Position numbers and translations under genes: made by a program
Notes under the pieces: generated by a model
Seen by the model: only the letters and a program-made list of their open reading frames with translations
The model's database searches: none
Told to the model about the DNA's origin: nothing
In this document: piece after piece, positions 12,405 to 26,268 of the stretch
Numbering within the stretch: position 1 is the first letter of the stretch
How the letters are laid out: each line of letters starts with the position of its first letter
DNA from: Paramecium tetraurelia
Taxonomy: Eukaryota
DNA: 64,000 bases
Assembly (NCBI GenBank): GCA_000165425.1
Contig: CT868039.1
Coordinates: 62,001-126,000 of the forward strand
Direction of reading: 5' to 3'

Positions 12405-14144
12405 TCACTTTTTCACAAAACTAAATATAGTTGATTAAGTTTATTTAAGTGCTTTTTCTATAGATTTTATTGATTACTTCTTTTGAGTAGATTGATCATG
12501 TGTTGGTTTGCTTTTTATCTAAAATAATACAAGTAAATACATACTTAACTTAAGCATTATGTGTTTGTAACTTTGGATTTGATAGAGAAGGGATTGAAAA
12601 ATTCAGATGAACTTTCATTAGACTCAATGTCATCAATATTATTTTATTAAGTGATTTGCACTTACTTTTGCTATAACTTCATGCCTTCCTCATTCTCATC
12701 ATCTCCTTATACGATCTCCAATTCATCTACATTTTATTGATTGTGCTTTTCCTGTTAATCAAAAATCTCTTCACACAACTTAAATATGCTTAACTCCTCC
12801 TTCTATGTCTATGTACGTTTTGCTGGTAAAAATTACTATTCTCTTATAACATTGGCAGGTTTTTCAACAAATTCTGGTAGATTATCAATATCAGCAGTCT
12901 ATAAAAATTATTAAACTCTTTGCTTAGCTTCAATATCTACAATTTATTATTTCGAATTTTCCAATCTCCTTTCAATCCTTTTGAACAATTAAGTAAAATC
13001 TATCTTCATTCTTTCTCTGAAAACCAAAGTCTTAATGTCCAAATCACCATTACAGAATTGAACCTACAGATTCTCTTAGATTCTTTCACCCACCAATTGC
13101 TATATCTAATCAAGAGGCAGGAATTTATCTTATTCAAGTGTCTCCAAAAAACCATCATACTTCTCTTGATTCAATTATACCCATTATTTCTTAGTTGGGC
13201 AATACACTGTTTAAAATTAGAAGATCAATCTCGTGGCTTTGACTATTTTTTCATACTCCTCAGGGATCTTACCATTAAATTACTTAGCCTTTTTCAATTT
13301 ACTAATTGTATTACTAATGTCATCGTATTTAGACATATAATCAATCGCTTTTTTTATTCCCATCCCCCTAATAGATGGAACATAATCACATCCACTCATA
13401 ATGCACACATCAATCAGTTGTTCATTCTTGAAGGCTAAAAACTATCTTATGTCATCGCTTTTAATATGCGCTCTATTTTAGCGAGATTCTCTTAGTTTCT
13501 ATAACTCCAATTCAAAGCAGGCTCCGTTGCTTTACAATTTAAAAACAATCAACGGACATTGATAACAAATTAAATCACTCTGAAAGACATATAATTAATT
13601 AATACATCTTCTGTTATGGCGAAGTCACACTACCCACTTAAACACATATGGGCAATCTAAGCATCAGCCTCATATGGTGCTATTATGTATTATACTTCTA
13701 ATTCCCTTAACACATCAAATGTAGTGTACATCATTTACTTACGTATTTTCAAACATCTTTGATAGTACCTTTTAGCCTCCTCTGTGTTTCCACTTTCCTA
13801 CAATTCTTTTGCTTTTAATAAGTTTTGCTGTTTGATTTACTTTCGCATCTATTCAGTCTTCTCTTTAGCTCTCAAATTTCGACCATCAAATATTAATATT
13901 GGAGTTATTTCATATTCTTTCAACATTATCAACTAACCATCATCACAAATCTCATTACCATTTTTTACACATAATAGAGATAATCATTTGTCTTGATGTC
14001 TTGATTTAATTCATGAGCACACGAATAGCATCCTCGATATAGCCAAGACATAGCATCGATTGCAGCAGTCTTTCCACGGTAAAAAGTAATGCATCGTTCA
14101 ACTAAAGCTGGTTTTAGAAAATTGAGCAAATTCTCTATTCCCAT
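12405..14144 (-). CDS. EXO1: Exonuclease 1 (XPG/Rad2 family)
   Basis: MGIENLLNFLKP...AIDAMSWLYRGCYSCA, ILIFDG, APYEADAQIAHM, ITEDSDL and GGCDY motifs. C-terminal PIP-like QSTIFSF. Confidence 0.92.
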
Positions 14145-14618
14145 TTAAATTTAATATAAAATTTATTATCCCGCCTTTTTTCCTATAAATATTTTAAGTC
14201 ACTTATTGGATGCGATTAATTATCTAAAGCATCCAAATAACTTAAAATATTTTACAAAAGCAGACTCATATAGGTATAGATGAACTAAAAATTGCTTACA
14301 TATATATTTGAAAGAACAAAATTAATTAATCTTTTTGATATTATGTTAATATTTTAATAATAATAACTTTTTTTTTTAATTAAATTAGTCTAGTTTAATT
14401 AGTTATTGATAACTATGCAGTAATTCTCTCACAAAGGTATCATCTATCTTTGTGAGGTAAACATTTTCGAATTAGATTAAGACACTAATTCTCATTTTGC
14501 AATTGTGTTACTTTATATAAAAAATCTTGGAGAGGGATTGTATATAACTTCTAAAACTAGGGATAATAATAAATTAAAATAAGATTTAAACTCTATTATT
14601 ATTTGAGTATTATATAGA

Positions 14619-15408
14619 TCACTTTTTAAAATTAAAAAAGTCTATAGGCAATCCTGCTTTTGCAGTTTTGGGGATTGATGTTTATTTTGTTCTTTTTTCT
14701 GATAATTTGATTTTGAGTTCTCTTGTTGAGAGCATAAGCAAATCAAGGATTTTATCTGGTACATCTGTTTTGAGCTTGGTGTTCTTATTTTAATTTTCAT
14801 TTCTAATGTCCAATTTGAGATTGGTGGTTTCATCTGTCTATTTATATAATGGATAAATTTGTTTGCAAATAGATTTAATTTATTCTTTGGATTGAATTTA
14901 TTTGGATGTCAGAACAGGAGTTCTATAACAAATGATTCTGTCGCTGCAAATTTATGTGTCAGGTTCAGTTTTTATAACAGTTTTATCTTTATTAAAGCTT
15001 TGGTAGTCAATAATTTATTATTGCTTGGGAGATTGATAGGAATTAGAATTTAGTTATTGTTTAACCATGTAGCCATTAATAACTTTGGATTGTTTGGGTG
15101 GTTATTTAATAGCTTAATTGATTGATTATTGGATTGTTTCGACGTCTTGGGATTTTTGTCTTCGAGAAGAGTGTAATTTGGTTGAGGTAATGTTTTTCTG
15201 GCTTTTGAATTTGTGTTAGTTAATATGGGGATCCTTGTTAGTGTGCAGGGATTGATTTACATGTTTTTTGGATTTAAGTAATTTTAATCTGATGATTATA
15301 TATAAATTTATACTAATCAGCAATATTGTCAGCATTTCTGTTTAGACATGCTTACTATGAAATATGGTAACTAATTTGGTGGGAAGGTACATAATATGCA
15401 TGATTCAT
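14619..15408 (-). CDS. Hypothetical low-complexity protein
   Basis: MNHAYYVPSHQ... start, one ~25-nt intron, then an open frame to ...GLPIDFFNFKK-TGA using TAA as Gln. Confidence 0.6.
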
Positions 15409-15689
15409 GATATTCGAAAATATTAAAAAAATTAATCAATGTAAAATTGAATTCGGTAAAAGTGCATCAAAAAAATCTGTTGTGAATTTAGTTATTGCCC
15501 CCTTTTGGTATTAGTAATTTGTTGGGTTGACTTATATTACTTTTAGAGTTTGGAGTTTTGTTTAATTCTGTGAATATCCTTTTTAATCTTGAGTTGAAAG
15601 AAATAACAAGTCTAAAGTTTCTCTTTTTGGTTTATAATTGTATTGATGATCATTTAATATGTTTTGGTTGGTATCTTGGAGAAATTGAT

Positions 15690-16472
15690 AATCCTGATCT
15701 AGCTAAATGAAAATTTGCTCATCTTACTTACCCCCTCATCAAATAACTGTAAGGACTTGAGTCTCACCCTTCGAATACAAAGCAGAACCATTAGCAGTTG
15801 GAAAATATGGATTAGTTTTTCTATTTTTTTATGCATTTTATTTTATTATACAAAGTCTTTTACCAAAGTAATAAGCCATCTCGACACTTGATTCAATTCT
15901 AATAGTCACCAAAGCTGATATAAATTCATCAATAGAACATTCTGGTATTTCCCTTTAATTATTACCACGGATACATCATTGATAACTGTAATAATTTCTG
16001 ATTTCGTATTTTGAAATGTCATTCCTTTCACCATAAAACTGGGTTTTGAAATGGGAGATCAGAAAACAATAAAGCAGGAGATACCCAAGCAATGCAGCCA
16101 TCTTAGGATCATAAAAAAGAGTTGTGCATGATATCCGAATTTCTACTTCAGTAAAATCTGAGAGAATAATAGTCTTTTTTGCCTATCTAGCCTGTGTGCA
16201 ATAAAAATCTCTCTTTCACTCAGCTTAGTTTCGCGTTTTATGAAAACCACCCCAATATTTTTCCAAGAAGCATAAAATTGGTATTGATACTTCACCTGCA
16301 ACGGCGAAAAACCCTATATCTTTGTCCAATTTAGAGCAAGCTACCATTCAAAACACCGTTGTATCTCGTATTTTACCACTACAGAGGAGTCAGGTTGTGT
16401 AGTTAGAGCTCTTGTTTTCAGTTGCACCTAAATTGGGCAATAAAAAGGAATTTTTGAAGTATCTAATGACAT
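15690..16472 (-). pseudogene. pnp: Degraded bacterial-type polynucleotide phosphorylase (PNPase) fragment
   Basis: Colinear PNPase blocks across frameshifts: LKTRALTTQPDSSVVVKY/DTTVF, GFF/PLQVKYQYQFYASWKILG/KRETKLSEREIFIAHRLDR, ALLFSDLPFQNPV, ECSIDEFISAL, FPTANGSALYSKGETQVLTV, DEQ. In-frame TGAs, an internal deletion and no evident introns. Confidence 0.85.
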
Positions 16473-16529
16473 CCAGTTTTTCTTGGAGTTACACTCTACT
16501 TTACAGCCTCTGAGTAGAATTTGATAAAA

Positions 16530-16850
16530 TCACTTACGTATATACCTAAATCCTTTGTCAGTTCTCTAATGTGAGTGGAAGACTTGTTTTTAAGGTATTG
16601 GAATAGCCTTGTATATAAATTAACTAACATCACAAAACTTCTATGACTGCTAAAGTCATTTTTGGTCATGTGTAAGTGCTCAATTTAAACTCTATATTTT
16701 AGGAGTAAAAAGGGACATGGTTTCTCTTTTGGATTTGTGAATTTAGCTTTCTCTCTCAAGAGCCTTGTTGTTCGACTCCTTCTAGTACTACAGATACTTG
16801 CTTCAGCTCTTTATATTGCTGTATTTGATTTTGTTTTGTTTCTGCTGCCT
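16530..16850 (-). pseudogene. rpsO: Degraded bacterial-type ribosomal protein S15 (uS15); 5' end approximate
   Basis: SLFTPKIQSL/IEHLHMTKNDFSSHRSFVMLVNLYTRLFQYLKNKSSTHIRELTKDLGI/RK-TGA aligns by eye to the S15 C-terminal consensus (..EHL...KD..SRRGL..LV..RRLL.YLK......Y..LI..LG.RK). It ends 57 bp before the pnp-like ATG. Confidence 0.75.
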
Positions 16851-17242
16851 TTTTATTCTTCCATTTTATCTAACAATAAGGTTTGAGCATAACGAATACT
16901 TAAGTTACTGTTTTCAATACAATAATTATATCAGTACCACTATAAAAACCACCATAGATATTAAGATAGTTTTATGAAAAATCCTCTATATGCTATTTGT
17001 TTTTGCAATTTCGAAAGAATTTATGTTTTTTAAAGTGTTTTTCTCTGAATCTAATTGGGAGTTTTCAATTGTTAACGATATATCTCAAATGAATGATAAT
17101 TTAATTTATATTTAAACTTAGATTTCCAATCAAACCTTACTTTAGTTAGTTTTGTTGAATAAATATGTTTTCAAGAAATTTTCTTTAAAACGATTATGTA
17201 TAGTATCTGGTGAAAGCTTGAGAACATCTTTCTGGCTCATGA

Positions 17243-17266
17243 ATATTGCTATATTGCTATATTGCT
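17243..17266. repeat. Perfect 8-bp tandem repeat (ATATTGCT)x3
   Basis: Read directly from the sequence. Confidence 0.9.
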
Positions 17267-18254
17267 CCATACACTTATTACTTTGAGCACTAATTTTCTA
17301 TTTTATGGTAAAGAAAAATAACACTATCAAAAAGAGTAATTGCTTCTACAATGATGTGGTGCGTAGGGATATCTTAATGTAATATGAGCACATCTCGTTA
17401 TACTCAATTCCCCTTTTAGAGTATTTCCTCCATAAAGAGAATCTTTGTTCTTTTGACGTTTTCATGATCTTTAGTTTAATATTAACCTATCAATTAAGCC
17501 CATATTTGGTTATAATCTGTATCCAAATTATCAAAGAGTTTTGTAAATTGTTGAAGATGATTTATCTTTCATCATTTAATTGACATTTCTCTTACATAAT
17601 TTCTTTTTAGTTTAATTGTATTTTTTTATATTTAAATAAAATTAACTATACTTTAAATGATTAACGAAATAATTCAGAATGATTAAGGTATGATTTATCA
17701 ATCTTTCATCTTATTACTATGATTAATTCTGATATTATTGTTAATTACTTCAGTTAGCTGCATTGATTTACAATTTATTAATTTAAACCTAATTTATTCT
17801 CTATTGCAAAATGAAAGATAATTTAATATCTTGAAAGATATCATTTAAAATAATTAAAATAATATGGTTCCCAAGAGTTTTAAAAGTGTTGATATTAACC
17901 GTCAATTTGATTGTAGCATGTTTGATCACATTTTTCAATAATCTAAATTGTTTACACCAGCAGTATTAACATCGGGTACCTAATTTATTAATATAGATTT
18001 AGAATTCTTTGAAATCTGAGTTTCTAACAAATCCAGAAGTTACATTGATGTATTAATCTTACAGGAGACATGTTTTAAATAGTGGTAGAATTTAACTATG
18101 AATGATGTTTATTAATGCTGCTTGTTAGTTTTTAATAATCTTTACCTTGATTGAATAATAGATTTAATTATTAATTTGATTTTATGCAATAATTGAGTAA
18201 TAATTAGTGCATAAATAGCAAATATTTGTATAAAATAAAGTGATAATTTATTAA

Positions 18255-21200
18255 ATGAATATTGAAGAGCTGAAGGATTCTATATAGAAGTTAGGGTCGC
18301 AATCACAGGAGTAAGATAAAATACATTATTAAAGTTGCCAGAAGGAATTGGAGATAGTATGGTAATAGATCTAACATTAAGTGGGTTTGGATTTGATATA
18401 TCAAAGTGGAAAGGCAGTGATTGAATTGAGATCGTAGGCAACTGGTTGGAAAGTAAGTTATACTGTTATTGAGGATAGTAAGCAAATAAAATCTTGTCGC
18501 ATATAGTGAAGGTGTGTTTAAATAATAAGGAATAATTAAAGGCATGGGAAACATTGAAGATTGTGATGGATCCAGACAAGCAAATATATAAATGCCATGA
18601 GTTGCATTAGATTGATGTAAATTAGGTATCAGTAACAAAATGATGAGATAGTTTTCACATCATGAATTCACATAATATGAGTTTTGTGCAGAATTGCAAG
18701 AAGGTTAATAAGTGGATGCATTGTATGAAGATGAGAAGGGAAATGTGATAGGTTGGTGCAGAGCGACGATTGACAAGTTGAATGAGAAATTTGTGTGGGT
18801 CAAATGGCATGAGAATGACGATAAGAGGAAGATAGTCAGATACTCCATGGATTTGGCACCATTCAAAAGCAAAGTCACTGATGAAGAGTGGCAATGGAGA
18901 CATTCCTTGTAACCTGGAGACCTAATTGATTGTTTTGAAAACAGACATTGGCAGAATGCAACTATTATTGCAGCCTTGAAGGATGAAGAGGTCGAGTATA
19001 TTGTAGGCTTTAGAGTGTATGATGAGAAGGGCAATCTCTATGATTCGATGGGCAAGAGATACATCGGTTGGAATTCTCAAAACGACGAAAGGATTCGAGC
19101 AGTTAATCCCAGAATCCAAAAGAGAAATACTTTTTCTAAAGGTCAATATCCTAATCCTTATTGTCAGGAGGATATAATTATGGATTGCAACGATTTCTTA
19201 TACCCAGACACCCACTATGCCATACCTCGCTTTACTACCAAGCAAACTGGTCGTTCGATCGTTCTTACTTAGATGATCAACGATTTTGGGACTTAAGGGT
19301 TATTTCATTATATTTTAGAATAAATCTAAGCTAAATGTACAATAGACTTCCTTCACTTTTATATGCAGGTTCTAAATAACATCCATGAAATGTTGAATAA
19401 ATAATTCGTTACTAGTTATGTTCCAACTCTGGAGATCGCTGTTTAAAATAATATTCTATAATCTCCAGATAACAATCTGCGTAATTTCTCTGCTTAGAAA
19501 ATAACAGACATTTTGTAATCATTAGCAAATTTGTTGAAAAGAGTCTACACCTTATAAAGAAGATAAGAAATCATTGATAAATTTGATTTCGATATAGCAT
19601 TTAAATGTTTCACCAGTGATTTCTTGGAGAGAAAAATCCAAGGACTCAAGGCAATTCAGGAATTGATTAAGCGAACCAAAGACCAATATAATTAATATGG
19701 AATTCAAGAATACTAGAAACAGGCTGCTATCTAAACGATATTGGAATGGTTGAATGAAAAGAAGATATTTGAATCATTATATGTTGGATCAGGTAATTCC
19801 CATCTTGTTTAGAGAAGTGGAGAATTCTTTAAATTTCTTGTTGAGGAAAAGATGATCGGAATACAGAATCTAAAGGAGATCTTGAGTAGTTTAGATAAAG
19901 CAGAATATGAACATAAACTAGCCATTCATAAGTTGTTCAAGGATGTATCTAATTCTCTGGACAAAGAGTGGCTGGATTTCTTAACTGATGAAATTTGCAA
20001 CAAAGATCCAAAAGAAGTGAGCAAAGATGATTTGGATTTATTATTAGATATTGTCAAATCAAATCATAAGTATAAAGAAGATTACATTTAAAAATGTTGC
20101 AATTGCTATTGGAATGTCTTAAAGGATGGACAATTGAATTAAACTCTTTTTGAGTAGTATCTAGCACAGTATATTGAATAAGTGACTTCTTTTGAAATGA
20201 GACCACATAAGGGAGGACAAGTTAACATGATTGGAGAAAGCATTGTAAAATTGTAATCCCCTCTTATTGGGTTGAAAGTACTAACTAAATTAATTGAAAA
20301 GTTGGACATCACAGTTGCTGTCTGGGAATAATATACTCGTAACACAGCTTTGACTGATTTACAATAGAACTATTAAATCATAGAAGACGTTATCTTTTAA
20401 ATTAAAAATGCCAAATAGTAAAATGAAAACTTTGAAGAAATCAAAGTGAGGATGAACTTTATATAGATTTTTTATTAGAACATCACTACATATGATTATC
20501 GATTACAATTCAAAGTTATATCTACTCTATGGGAATTATTGGTTTGCAAATCTGACTGCTAATAAGAGAAAGAACTAGTTTATAAATGGTTTAATGCATT
20601 AAATAATTTGGATGGACAGTCTTAATTGGCATCAATGGTTACAAGCTAAGAATTAAAGAAGTTTTTTAGTGAGAAGATGACAGCTGATCTTGCTCACTTG
20701 ACTGAAGAAGGATTTAATTGTTTAAAGACTGTTTTATTGACAATTAATAAAAGTGAGTCCTTTGGAATTGATGTCTTATGGTAAATAATACTAGAAGGAG
20801 AGAATGAGAAGGTCTCATAGATGGCGATTGAATATTGTCATTTATTTGAATCAAGTGTGGATAGATTGTTTCAAAAAATATAGGAAAATAGGGAATCAAA
20901 TTAAAAGTTGCTCAGATGTTTATTAGTATTAGAAGATTTCATAGATTAAAGTGAAGTAAATGGAGTTGGAAACTTAAAGAGTTTGAATGCTCTCTCTTAA
21001 GGAGAAGAATTGTTAATTTAAATTTAGTATGATAATAGTCAGCAAAGAAGATTTACAATTCAAATTAATGATAATCAAACTATTGTTGAATTGAGAGTAG
21101 CAATCAGCAAGGTGATTAAGATATAATGGGATGCTTTAGGTTTGAATAGTCTAAAAGGGGAAATTAAGTTTACAGAGAATGGAAAGATGATCAAGGATCT

Positions 21201-24200
21201 GAGATTAAAGAAAGATGAGATAATTATAGTTTTTAAAAAGTAAATTAAGGAAGTCCCAGAAGCTCAACTATTAGAAGGGGATAACCTATCCGAATAGGCT
21301 AAGGTTGTATTTACTGAAATCTTCAGCGAATATTCAACCGATGGCAAAATGACGAAAGAGGATTGCACTAGATTTGTAACTGGATGCACTGGTAATCCAT
21401 GCAGTATTGATGATGCTAACATTCAAAGAACATTTGAGTAATATGATAAAGACAAAGATCAAATCTTAACTTTATAGGATTTCTTTGAGTTTTATACAGA
21501 TTCAGCTAGAACTAAGAAATCAACTGTTTGGTTGAATTTGCAAACATTACACTATAGAAATGATCTAATAAGAGGTGATAGAGTGCCTTTGCCTCAAATC
21601 AATCCCTAGTAATTACCAAGAGGTTAGATAGTGTAAAATTAGGAATATTTAGATTTGCTATTTGAATTCCTCTCAAGTTCTAGTATTGATGTGTAAGAAA
21701 AAACTTGGTATTTATTGAGAAGATTGCCACCTTCACCTTAATTGATCAAATAAATGTTAACATTTGAAAATATTACTAAACCAACAGATTGGGATTCAAT
21801 TTTAGTGAGCAACCATTATAGATTGCTATACAGTTTGTATATTATAGAATTTCTGATGAATCAATAGGATTCGAATAATTTACAAGCTCTGATAGAGGAT
21901 CAAGATATCCTAAATTTAAAAGATAAATGGATGAGTAAATTCTTGTAATATGGCGGTTTCGATAGATTATTATAGTTCTTCAAAGAATATCAGGACAAGA
22001 GTGTTAGTACTTTATCATAAATTGAAAAAGAGATCTTATCATTTTTATTAAACACATTCTAAAATTATGTGATTGCTGCTTGTGCTGTTCAGATTCCAAA
22101 TTTATTTAAGGCTTCAAGAGGAATTCAAATAATTAGACCATTAGATCAAGTGCTATTAGATATAAGATAATCTGAAGAGCCCAAGGAATTTTAATTGTTG
22201 GTTTAAAAGTTGAAGGAAAGTAGATTAGGGGATAACATAATAGAAAAGATAGAGAACTTCATCTCTGTTCTAATCAATCTGATATAGGAATTGTTAAAAT
22301 GTAATGAATTGGAATAGGAGGATAGATAAATTATCGAACATAGCATAATAATTATAATAGTAATCCTGTTACATAATCAAGAATTGTTAGTGAAAAGTAT
22401 TGAAAACATCGAATTTATTAACATATTTTTCAGTGGCATCTTTACTGGTAATTCTGATACTTTGCGTAATCTGTTTAGTAGAGCCATTCTTGTACTTTGT
22501 CATGAAAGTTAAAAGAAAAACAATTAACCAACAAGAATCATTTTACAATAGTTGATAGCCATGGAAAATTCTCAGGGTAGTTCTGCTCAATATTATGAAT
22601 TATTGAGTCAGTTAATAGATAGTGCATTTGAATCTGAAGAATCCTAACAATTCATTGATTATTAATAACTCAGTTAATAAGTATTGCAGAATTTAATGAA
22701 TTATTAAAGTTAGGAAACTAGATCCAAAAATACTTCAACTGACAAAATATTGGTTGGCTTATTGAATCTCTTGACCAAACTATATAGATTCATTAAGCAA
22801 CCAATTGTTGACATTATCTTCAATGATTGTTTATTTAGTATGCAAGAAGAGAAGGAGATCAAATGCAAGTCTGCTGATAGTAGAAAAGTAGCATTTAACC
22901 TACTCAATAAATTAGCTTAGTAATAGAACATGAATACCATCATAGCAAACCTCTAATTGTTAAGTTAGAAAATACCAAATATCAATAGATGGAACTATAT
23001 ACCTACAAGTGAAATCAGAAGTACTCTGGGCTATTGTGGTATAAAAAATCTAAGATGCATTTGTTACATGAATGCAATGTTACAACAATTTTATATGATA
23101 AAACCCTTTAGATATGGTATACTACAGGCTAATGATCAAAAAGAGGTAGACTTACAAATTAGTAAGACAGGATTTACTTATGATGATAATGTGCTACATC
23201 AATTGCAATAAATGTTTAGTTATTTAGAACTATCAGATCGCGTTGATTATAATCCTTAAGAGTTTTGTGCAGCTTTTAAAGATTATGCTGGTGAGCCAGT
23301 CAACATATTTATATAATAAGATGCATAAGAATTTTTAAATATGATATTTGATAAATTGGAGAATATGTTAAAGGAAACCGTCTATAAAAACATTATGGAT
23401 GGAGTATTTGGTGGAAAGACTTGCACATAGATTTAATGTCAAAATTGTAAAGCAACAAAATCAAAGGATGAAATATTTTACAATTTATCTTTACCGATCA
23501 AGAATTTAAAGAATTTGTAGGAGTGTTTTGATAAATTTGTTTAAGGAGAGATTATTTCAGATTTCAAATGTGAAAGTTGTAATTAGAAAGTGGATGTGAA
23601 CAAATGTTAACTTTTGGCTCAATTACCAAATATATTGATTTTGCATCTTTAGAGAATTGTATTTAATTTGGACACTTTTATGAATGAGAAGATTAATACA
23701 AGATTGGAATTCCCAATTAATTTAGATTTGCAATAATACACGATTAACAAGGATTAATGCACATCATATAAATTAGTTGGAGTAGTTGTTCATGTTGGTA
23801 CTGCAGATGTTGGACATTATTTCAGTTACATAGATATCAAAAATCAGGATTAATGGTTAGAGTTTAATGATCATAAAATAAAAGAATTTAAATTGAAGTA
23901 GATGCAATAAGAATGTTTTGGTGGATCAGGTAATATGGATTATAATGAGAATGACGTATGGGGATCAGGATTTAGAGAGAATTCTTAAAGTGCTTACATG
24001 CTTGTCTATGAAAAGGTTTAGAAAGATCAAATATCTCTTGTATTCAATAGTGAGCAAGAACTATAAAATAATTTACACTAATTTGAGAATTACACAATAG
24101 ACCCCAATTAAAAAAATTGCCTATTGGTTGACTATAATTCATAGAAACCTTATATTCCAAAAGAGTATTAAAGCAAAGTGAATTGTGATAATCAACAATT

Positions 24201-26268
24201 CCTATTAGAACGTAATCTGTTTAGTCAAGATTTCTTGAAATTCATCCTAGATGCAAGTGAATTTGTGAATGAAGAGAATGCCAATAAGATGATTGATGTA
24301 TTAATCAAGTTTAATTATGATCTGTTGTCAAGATCATATGAAAATTCATTAATGGAGTAATTCAATACCAAAATCTTACAATTAATTTAATAATATCCAA
24401 ATATCAATTACCTTGATTTGGTTTACTTTGGCAAATTAAACAAAGTGGTGGATTTATTATTAGTGTGTCCTGAGGCGAGAACACGCAAACACTTTAGCAA
24501 ATTGTTATCAACCCTATTTAATTAAGCAATCTAGATTTAAGGAGAAATCACAGAAAAATTCAATGAAGGATTAGATCAATTATTCTTGATGATTCAAGAT
24601 CAAGTCCCTAAGAATTGGACTAGATATGAATTTTATTTTCAATTTTGGTTAGACTTTTTGTAAGAAGGCAAACCCTAATAAGAATACTTGAAGAAGAAAA
24701 ATATGTTCCTATATATGATAGATTTTATATTAGATAGAAGCAGTCCATTACAATTGTATGAAAAAAAGGTGTAAATGGGGAATGCCTATGTCGCTATGAA
24801 TATCCAAATTTAAGTTTAAATAGTATCTACACTATTGAACCTAGATCAATAATTAAGTTTGAATGAGAAGAAATTATTGTATTAACCTAAGTTATACGAT
24901 AAAATACTGAAAACTAAAGTAGATGACATTTTACCTTTGATATAAAAATTATCTTATAAGAACAAGTACTTCTCAGAGATCATTTCAGGATGTATTATGC
25001 GTGGTATGTCGAATGGTGAGGTTGATGAATTCAAGAATTATTTATAAGTAGCTTAATCCTTCTTATTGATTGATGACAATCTCTAAATTGAAAGGCTAGA
25101 ATGGTTAATCGGCATTCCATCATCCAAACAAAAGGACTCAACAAAAATCTATGATAATCAAATAAATGAAATCCCATCATTTGGATTGTTTGGACTATCG
25201 AGTTTGGAAGAAGATTACTGGACATTTGCCAGTCCATTAGGGTGGTCAAATTGTTTATTTGATTATTTCTGTTCTCACAGAGGAATCAAAAATTATGATA
25301 CCCAATGTTTATTAATACTCAAGTGTCTCCTTCAAATAAGTGTCTAAAATCAAACATGCTTCAACTACATTTCCAATCTGCCATGCGTTAATTATCAATA
25401 CGTAATTATTTTATCTATTTGTAGAAATATAATGAAGACATCTTCAAGACCTTTATAGACATTTACATTTTAGATACTAAGCGATTCTATTCATTGAATA
25501 ATCGTAAATAGGAATCTGAAGAAACTAAACTTCTACTTGAAGAATACCTAAAAAAATTAGAGTAGACACGTGACCCCTCTAAACCATAGTATGATTATAT
25601 CATTGGAAAATCTGTTGAAGTCATTAAAAAAACTAAGCTGTTTTATCTATTCAATCCTGTTACTAAAGAGGAATTAACAGTTAACGAAGAATCTTCAAAC
25701 TTTAAATAAATCAAATAACAAATTGATGATGGATCACTTCAAAAAATTATAACTTTAGAAGTAAATAATCTTATTATCTTAGGAAAAAGTCTTCATTACA
25801 CATGTTTGTGACAATCTACCAACTGGGTAAACAAATGAAGCCTTGCCTGAATAATATGTAAAGGGAACCTAAATACATCATTTTTCAGTTGATCCAAATT
25901 CAGAAGCAGCTAATTTCATATAATCTAAAGCTTGGAATGTTGAGAGCAATGATAAAGCAGTAGTATCTAATCCAAGATAGGCTGAAACTGTGAGGTAGAT
26001 ATAATTGCAGAATAATACAAATCGAAATCTCCAAGTAATCCTTGAAATCAAAGGACCGTAAAATGCTTGTCATTACATTCCTACTTCTAAAATTTAATCC
26101 CTCATGAATCCAAAAATTATTGCTACAATGCTTACAACTATCAAGATGAAAAGCCAAGATGAATTTCCAAAGTTAGATTTATTTTTGTAATACAAAAAAC
26201 AAGAACCTAAGTCAGAATCTTATCTGTATATATCAGATTAAAATGAAATGAATTTGGAGTTGTTATGA
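18255..26268 (+). CDS. Giant ubiquitin-specific protease (USP9X/24/34-like), ~2600 aa
   Basis: Cys box GIKNLRCICYMNAMLQQF (~23035), QQDAQEF and His box YKLVGVVVHVGTADVGHYFSYI (~23770). Long helical regions, an EF-hand-like segment at ~21300-21560 and a few tiny introns. Confidence 0.92.

Follow-up and report, generated by a model that had tools for sequence, protein, structure and literature searches.

A probable fossil of Candidatus Fokinia-type endosymbiont DNA in a chromosome of Paramecium tetraurelia

Paramecium is a classic model of bacterial endosymbiosis, and a stretch of its chromosome that reads like part of a bacterial operon raises the questions of which bacterium it came from, how it is joined to the host DNA, and whether it still serves any purpose. 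Such a stretch is found in a window of 64,000 nucleotides of Paramecium tetraurelia (the whole stretch of DNA analyzed here; contig CT868039.1 of assembly GCA_000165425.1, positions 62,001 to 126,000). A first-pass annotation made from the sequence alone had marked positions 15690-16850 (1160 bp) as a broken rpsO-pnp operon fragment lying between native genes, inserted horizontally from an endosymbiont or a prey bacterium and now decaying. Our analysis leads us to read this locus, with a probability of about 0.9, as a non-functional nuclear fossil of DNA from a Candidatus Fokinia-type endosymbiont.

Anatomy of the rpsO-pnp fragment and its setting

The two bacterial proteins proposed for this locus were both recovered in family searches. 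NCBIfam models matched four of the 92 stop-to-stop frames between 12416 and 18659, two belonging to the fragment and two being FEN/EXO1-like, while the other 88 frames had no NCBIfam match. The minus-strand frame 16421-16930 matched S15_bact (TIGR00952; E=3.5e-6) over model positions 37-84 of 86, an incomplete domain scoring 27.2 bits against a curated cut-off of 63.65 bits. The minus-strand frame 16062-16529 matched polynuc_phos (TIGR03591; E=7.8e-11) over model positions 6-98 of 689, and a second, weak PNPase piece covering model positions 329-349 was detected at 15742-15800 (E=0.03). Matches to Pfam alone were weak (3.5e-5 for S15, 0.2 and 0.026 for RNase_PH), and a search of PDB sequences found PNPase at a best E-value of about 1e-3. 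The similarity to S15 and PNPase is confirmed by these sequence comparisons as real and far above chance. The conserved blocks quoted at first pass for both proteins are visible in the minus-strand translation; the S15-like segment ends in TGA as described, with the rpsO stop at 16532-16530, and the PNPase-like frame begins 57 bp further on with the pnp ATG at 16472.

The extent of the fragment was defined by comparison with the rpsO-pnp locus (L081) of genome G199, which on sequence identity is the genome of Candidatus Fokinia cryptica, and with G187, another Fokinia-like genome (0.8 Mb). In blastn, window positions 16714-15812 align to L081 1247-2178 with 77.6% identity over 940 columns, and positions 15809-15713 align to L081 2636-2732 with 79.4% identity over 97 nt; the corresponding values for G187 are 66.7% and 73.9%. 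Local alignment pushes the homology out to 16726 (L081 1234), runs uninterrupted through the rpsO stop and the spacer into pnp, and ends at L081 2732, which leaves pnp truncated after codon 411 of 782. No similarity was found upstream of 16726, where the alignment score of 62 is that of shuffled sequence (62.8 +/- 6.7, 200 shuffles). The interval marked at first pass was accordingly at the right locus but slightly wide upstream, donor homology running from 16726 to 15713. At the protein level, tblastn with the Fokinia PNPase (P0002, 782 aa) placed residues 1-224 at 16472-15816 (E=7e-35) and residues 377-411 at 15816-15712 (71% identity, E=3e-9), with no further match past residue 411. These two tblastn matches meet at 15816 and the two blastn blocks at 15812/15809, which bears out the large internal deletion claimed earlier and assigns it to PNPase residues ~225-376.

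In total, 1014 bp of the minus strand (15713-16726) correspond to 1499 bp of Fokinia DNA (Table 1). Compared with the F. cryptica locus, rpsO is missing its first 69 bp, and pnp is missing about 457 bp internally and all sequence beyond codon 411. The fragment is collinear with that locus in gene order, orientation and spacer, so that the identification of an rpsO-pnp operon fragment is upheld at the level of DNA. The bacterial arrangement of rpsO before pnp on the same strand with a short spacer is thus present, but intact reading frames are not, nor is the PNPase domain set of two RNase PH domains, KH and S1, residues 1-224 and 377-411 of 782 being all that is represented. The spacer, 57 bp long in the fragment and 72 bp in Fokinia, differs at six of 51 comparable sites and has three deletions, of 2, 1 and 12 bp. 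That this non-coding sequence is conserved along with the genes on either side shows that the transfer involved a single unbroken stretch of genomic DNA.

The DNA around the fragment is that of a ciliate, and the database protein identical to the S15-like frame, labelled as macronuclear and from Paramecium tetraurelia, identifies the window as macronuclear DNA of this species. GC content is ~28% across the window, and a 2293-aa open frame at 18616-25497 contains 129 TAA/TAG codons, which are read as Gln. The flanking genes have 25-26-nt introns that are spliced in RNA contigs and are ordinary ciliate genes, in agreement with the earlier placement between native genes of code 6. Their positions place the fragment in a spacer of ~15405-18334 between two divergently transcribed genes.

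Table 1. Positions in the window of the fragment, its parts and neighboring features
Feature	Positions	Strand	Basis or remarks
FEN/EXO1-like gene	12416-14198	-	NCBIfam matches in two frames
Expressed gene	14622-15404	-	RNA contig lacks the 25-nt intron at 15289
Stretch without a counterpart (>=85% likeness) in the paralogous contig	15621-18232	.	Contig joints in both DNA runs
pnp relic, codons 377-411	15713-15809	-	Start of second RNase PH domain; tblastn and blastn
Internal deletion junction (~450-457 bp, pnp codons ~225-376)	15810-15816	-	Abutting tblastn and blastn blocks
pnp relic, codons 1-224	15812-16472	-	First RNase PH domain plus some of the region after it; tblastn, TIGR03591 and blastn
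rpsO-pnp spacer relic, non-coding	16473-16529	-	Aligns to L081 1429-1500
rpsO relic	16530-16726	-	Fokinia rpsO from about codon 24 to stop; L081 1234-1428; TIGR00952
"S15-like" gene model, 148 aa (P0001)	16421-16864	-	100% identical database protein, labelled unnamed protein product (macronuclear)
Ubiquitin-hydrolase-like gene	RNA contig from 18335		26-nt introns at 18453 and 18623 absent from the RNA contig

Relationship to the sequenced Fokinia genomes

A HMMER search with a 156-aa PNPase piece of the fragment against 1.84 billion representative proteins returned seven proteins at E<=1e-3, and none of the seven is from a ciliate. The top match stands far ahead of the others: P0002, the polyribonucleotide nucleotidyltransferase of Candidatus Fokinia crypta/cryptica, was found at E=6e-18 with 57% identity, and the next true PNPase pieces followed at E of about 1e-5. 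When P0002 was compared with genomes of a single order, Rickettsiales (400 of 401 genomes scored), it was 100% identical in G199 and 78% identical in G187, with the next best genome at 43%. Scans with P0002 found at least 80 loci in genome contigs, with 34-51% identity among the matches listed, which did not include Fokinia itself, and at least 80 loci in metagenomes, all at 50% identity or below among the matches listed. No donor closer than Fokinia appeared among the metagenome matches listed, and a metagenome scan with the window piece itself gave 50 pattern matches with no relative among them. F. cryptica is described as a cytoplasmic symbiont of Paramecium biaurelia belonging to Candidatus Midichloriaceae (Rickettsiales) (PMC5118934).

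Reading the fragment through in the Fokinia frame, with an X at each broken codon, left 240 residues, which match G199 at 177 and G187 at 153 positions; identity to 20 other alphaproteobacterial PNPases is 28-34%. A PNPase tree of 23 rows and 237 columns was built with a sample of 22 of 86 loci, six of which had the best scores in the genome comparison and sixteen of which were hand-picked for spread. The window, G199 and G187 form a clade with support of 100/100 (ultrafast bootstrap and SH-aLRT), and on this phylogeny the membership of the fragment in the Fokinia clade is firm. A bacterial horizontal origin, as first proposed, is therefore sustained by the tree, and of the two sources then offered it is the endosymbiont that stands and the prey bacterium that falls away.

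Within this clade, the window likely belongs on the branch of G199. This grouping has an ultrafast bootstrap of 97 and an SH-aLRT of 82, and in nucleotide comparisons the window differs from G199 at 19.0% of sites and from G187 at 30.6%, with G199 and G187 themselves differing at 20.6%. Sites private to G199 number 30, against 145 private to G187. It is also conceivable that the donor lay outside the known genus, in an unsampled sister lineage that split off before the two sequenced Fokinia genomes diverged, and the SH-aLRT value of 82 leaves some room for such a donor. An AU test likewise does not reject a topology in which G199 and G187 are sisters and the window lies outside them (p=0.153). 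Given the bootstrap value, the pairwise distances and the imbalance of private sites, we regard a sister-lineage donor as unlikely. Placement of the window on the F. cryptica branch would put the donor near the stem of the G199 lineage at the time of transfer.

Neutral decay and the annotated S15 gene model

The fragment is heavily damaged. Compared with L081 it carries 21 small indels, 17 of which shift the frame (three in rpsO and 14 in pnp), and nine stop codons at homologous codon positions, one of them within the rpsO part; three of the nine are TGA, the codon that also ends translation in the ciliate code. The frames are broken by true 1-bp frameshifts and not by introns, as had been read from the sequence: a single base is missing between "...VVVKY" and "DTTV...", and an extra base precedes "PLQVKY".

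With G187 as the second Fokinia genome, 998 comparable sites could be polarized. The two Fokinia genomes agree and the window differs at 129 of these (12.9%), which by codon position are 32/30/34 in pnp and 12/10/7 in rpsO, with four in the spacer. The branch of G199 has 30 changes (4/2/19 in pnp, 1/0/3 in rpsO, one in the spacer) and the side of G187 has 145 (26/13/72 in pnp, 1/3/16 in rpsO, 14 in the spacer), while a further 31 sites differ three ways. Differences between the two bacterial genomes are distributed as 30/18/113 in pnp and 2/3/24 in rpsO, and Fisher tests separate the window branch from this pattern at p=6.7e-8 for pnp and p=1.5e-5 for rpsO. The flat distribution over codon positions indicates that nearly all change on the window branch took place without selection on either protein, and that life inside a bacterium accounts for very little of that branch. 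Together with the indels and stops, these counts bear out the earlier description of a decaying insertion; the fragment is dead and has evolved neutrally since it was inserted. A Jukes-Cantor correction of the 12.9% gives ~0.14 substitutions per site since insertion, at a rate that is uncalibrated and does not translate into years. On the window branch, GC-to-AT changes outnumber AT-to-GC changes by 59 to 44, and GC content is 33.6% in the fragment, 37.1% in its Fokinia counterpart and 25-26% in the flanks. The base composition of the fragment is moving towards that of the host.

Public annotation places a protein-coding gene over part of this DNA. The 148-aa "S15-like" model P0001, which carries a Pfam S15 domain in the public proteome annotation, starts at an ATG at 16864 with 46 upstream codons that are not bacterial, proceeds into the S15 relic, and continues past it into the spacer and pnp, ending in the pnp leader. 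Its frame stays open because TAA and TAG are not stops in the ciliate code. The model includes an intron of 28 nt (16510-16537), and the GTAAGT of this intron is formed by the Arg-Lys-stop codons that close rpsO. The statement at first pass that no tiny introns are evident therefore holds for the sequence itself, but not for the public annotation, in which one is drawn over the rpsO stop-codon region and the start of the spacer. A word-indexed protein search with the S15 frame produced nine candidates, of which the annotated protein itself was the sole match. In an RNA-type run, unspliced contigs cover 15655-15883, 16160-16480 and 16679-16862 at a depth of 2-6, compared with 19 in the neighboring gene, and may represent background or some transcription of the relic. 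The modelled intron and parts of the fragment are not covered by RNA contigs, a gap in coverage that is no sign of silence.

The S15 frame could in principle be a domesticated or newly born host gene, either a substitute for mitoribosomal uS15 or a chimera, with pnp alone being dead. The open frame from 16864 to 16421 and its Pfam-supported annotation speak for such a gene, as does the 184-nt RNA-type contig over 16679-16862. The substitutions in rpsO point the other way, with window-branch changes of 12/10/7 by codon position that differ significantly from the 2/3/24 pattern between the Fokinia genomes. In addition, the rpsO part has its three frameshifting indels, has lost the first 23 S15 codons, and scores 27 bits where the family cut-off demands 63.65; the modelled intron begins in the region of the rpsO stop codon and has no RNA contig to attest it, and none of the nine protein candidates is a homolog of similar length. 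We therefore consider a living S15 gene very improbable. The neutral substitutions, the three frameshifts and the missing S15 N-terminus lead us to read P0001 as most likely an artefact of gene prediction, produced by a frame that stays open under a code with one stop codon. Most likely, then, the public annotation should be corrected, the P. tetraurelia "S15" protein being a bacterial relic and no ribosomal protein gene.

Integration, transfer and significance

The fragment is physically continuous with ciliate DNA and is not an artefact of assembly. For the stretch 14200-18700, 0.94-0.99 of sampled words are present in 16 of the 24 runs listed; the 20 entries with any part of this stretch come from 14 studies, and nine of them possibly derive from the source strain. 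Two DNA runs from different studies (X3 and X5) each yield one contig of 3021 nt, spanning 15382-18402 with no differences and overrunning the edges of the fragment by 331 and 1676 nt, and overlapping contigs run into both flanking genes. This junction evidence consists of assembled de Bruijn contigs, and several of the runs are perhaps from the laboratory strain of the reference. Bacterial sequence in eukaryote assemblies is frequently contamination, and with many runs possibly derived from a single laboratory strain a chimeric assembly, or symbiont DNA contaminating the Paramecium data, deserves consideration. The identical contigs from different studies, with their long overhangs into ciliate sequence, weigh against both. 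The state of the DNA does so as well: a living symbiont would keep essential genes intact, and decay as heavy as 17 frameshifts, nine stops, a deletion and two truncated ends is irreconcilable with contamination by a live symbiont. There is also no other Fokinia-like DNA in positions 1-61999 of the window, where comparison with the DNA of G199 and G187 gave the fragment itself as the single match at E<=1e-3. Chimerism or contamination is thus highly improbable, and the earlier argument against simple contamination holds. In eukaryotes, nuclear genes can specify mitochondrial S15 and PNPase proteins that descend from alphaproteobacteria, but relics of two such native genes lying side by side can be dismissed here, as a single symbiont genus is nearest by far with no ciliate among the HMMER matches, the 77.6% DNA identity runs through a bacterial intergenic spacer, and introns are absent.

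Under the preferred reading as a nuclear fossil of Fokinia-type DNA, the material transferred would have been a contiguous piece of ~1.5 kb of a Fokinia-type chromosome, consisting of the final two thirds of rpsO, the spacer of 72 bp and pnp codons 1-411. Its landing site would have been the spacer separating the two divergently transcribed genes, in germline DNA of the P. tetraurelia lineage. Since each sexual generation rebuilds its macronuclear sequence from the micronucleus, we infer that the relic is present in the germline (micronucleus) as well. The symbiont may have lysed, its DNA then being taken in by end joining in the micronucleus. Following insertion, the fragment would have accumulated ~13% substitutions without preference for any codon position, along with 21 small indels and the deletion of ~457 bp, while its GC content drifted from 37% towards the 25-28% of the host. 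At present the relic probably has no role.

Transfers of this general kind are already known. Wolbachia DNA is inserted in the nuclear genomes of arthropods and nematodes, usually as fragments decaying as pseudogenes, and organelle DNA fragments occur in nuclear genomes as NUMTs and NUPTs. The Paramecium relic resembles the Wolbachia insertions in being Rickettsiales endosymbiont DNA in a heritable host nuclear genome. It differs from them in its host, a ciliate whose germline and somatic nuclei are separate, in its retention in the somatic macronucleus, in its donor family, Candidatus Midichloriaceae, and in that only ~1 kb survives. Like NUMTs and NUPTs, it is a random fragment that includes non-coding spacer, sits at an intergenic site, and is neutral and drifting to host composition, but its source would be a facultative bacterial symbiont rather than an organelle. 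Among protists, gene transfers involving Rickettsiales symbionts are described for eustigmatophyte algae (PMC6092422) and in surveys of horizontal transfer in Euplotes (PMC13071891), as far as the available portions of these two papers extend. Those cases likewise present gene flow as the trace of a long partnership, but concern genes that are retained and presumably functional, whereas here the fragment is dead, its donor genus is identified, and the host is Paramecium (PMC6092422, PMC13071891, the same portions). We found no report of symbiont-to-nucleus transfer in Paramecium in a literature search made mostly without subscription journals and supplements, so that an earlier mention is possible; the available portions of PMC5118934, PMC5905368, PMC11253213 and PMC13134042 report no such transfer. 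What is new is thus the host, Paramecium, the donor, Fokinia of the Midichloriaceae, and the retention in a somatic macronucleus.

The relic indicates that DNA of a Fokinia-type bacterium was taken up into the heritable genome of the lineage leading to P. tetraurelia, which would mean that this lineage once hosted such a symbiont. The reference strain is not known to carry this symbiont. The relic also indicates that foreign DNA is able to persist in the macronucleus. It offers a neutral marker, in that over the same time the nuclear copy changed at ~13% of sites and the sister Fokinia branch at ~8% of third codon positions. A broader proposal, which we consider doubtful, is that the relic is the first trace of a recurrent flow of Rickettsiales DNA that escapes RNA-guided elimination and supplies raw material for new genes. 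If this were so, symbiont DNA would be retained in the somatic genome despite RNA-guided elimination at macronuclear development, and the ciliate code, with TAA and TAG as Gln, would keep long frames open in symbiont fragments. Low-level transcription could then turn such fragments, for example the 148-aa S15 chimera, into material for new genes. The relic would further connect the P. tetraurelia lineage with a Fokinia infection in the distant past and could help to calibrate the substitution rates of host and symbiont against each other.

The remainder of the spacer has a different character. The 1.5 kb to the right of the relic (16727-18232) is AT-rich, with 25% GC, and has no NCBIfam or Pfam family above its curated cut-off, no Fokinia match and no RNA family (no Rfam matches). 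A Pfam scan of 37 frames in the spacer gave two sub-threshold matches at chance level, and a word-indexed protein search with the frame 17133-17489 had none scoring among 11 candidates. This DNA may be long-standing spacer of the host, filler that was joined in during the insertion, or foreign DNA that is no longer recognizable. A 26-nt imperfect direct repeat lies near the edges of the relic (15617-15642 and 16720-16745, 20 of 26 matches). It is equaled by one of 398 random window pairs when scored without gaps, and by 19 of 295 in gapped local score; with that many random pairs reaching the gapped score, the repeat is too weak to be taken as a target-site duplication.

Both DNA runs that span the junctions also contain a paralogous contig of 3463 nt, at similar depth and with ~10% differences, which presumably represents the whole-genome-duplication partner of this locus in P. 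tetraurelia. It matches the window at 15412-15493, 15580-15620 and 18233-18402, with joints at 15493->15580 and 15620->18233, and from this the paralogue likely lacks the relic. Variant bubbles at 15267-15409 and 18403-18520 likewise point to a paralogous locus.

An annotated protein built on the relic

A public P. tetraurelia proteome entry carrying an S15 domain is founded on the bacterial relic, that is, the dead rpsO-pnp fragment with homology to the Candidatus Fokinia clade. The Arg-Lys-stop codons of rpsO have been taken in this model as the start of a 28-nt intron (16510-16537). Surveys of ciliate mitoribosomal proteins could be misled by this annotated protein.

Features at and around the relic (window positions)
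Feature	Position	Strand	Basis or remarks
FEN1/EXO1-like nuclease gene	12416-14198	-	TIGR03674; small introns split coding sequence
261-aa frame, low-complexity, Gln/Lys-rich	14622-15404	-	spliced RNA contig
Imperfect direct repeat, 26 nt	15617-15642 and 16720-16745		20/26 matches
148-aa "uncharacterized protein", Pfam S15 domain	16421-16864	-	public P. tetraurelia proteome
AT-rich DNA, about 1.5 kb	16727-18232		GC 25%
Large ubiquitin-hydrolase-like gene	18335-25497	+	label read off translation, not from family search

Edges of the relic and the adjoining AT-rich stretch

The right copy of the direct repeat straddles the 5' edge of homology to Fokinia, and likeness to the paralogous 3463-nt contig stops where the left copy begins. 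A target duplication that has since decayed could account for the repeat, as could chance. Searches of the AT-rich stretch for protein families, RNA families and Fokinia DNA returned no matches, and the paralogous contig has no counterpart of it at 85% likeness. For an intergenic spacer in Paramecium this is unusually long. Small contigs from one RNA-type run lie at 17326-17609.

Neighboring genes

Two exonic frames of the nuclease gene match TIGR03674 (E=1.5e-20 and 1.9e-9). The 261-aa frame has no match in Pfam or NCBIfam. It is covered by an RNA contig spliced at a 25-nt intron (15289), and it is therefore a genuine expressed gene. RNA contigs also reveal 5' exons of the ubiquitin-hydrolase-like gene, from about 18335, upstream of a 2293-aa open frame; two introns of 26 nt, at 18453 and 18623, are spliced out.

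Matching runs under other organism labels

Two runs, X5 and X20, are assigned to two other organisms; they may come from this same species, differently labelled, or from mixed cultures. Both contain sequence identical to the window within 14200-18700: X5 has the same 3021-nt contig spanning the relic as run X3, and both flanking genes are represented by RNA contigs in X20.
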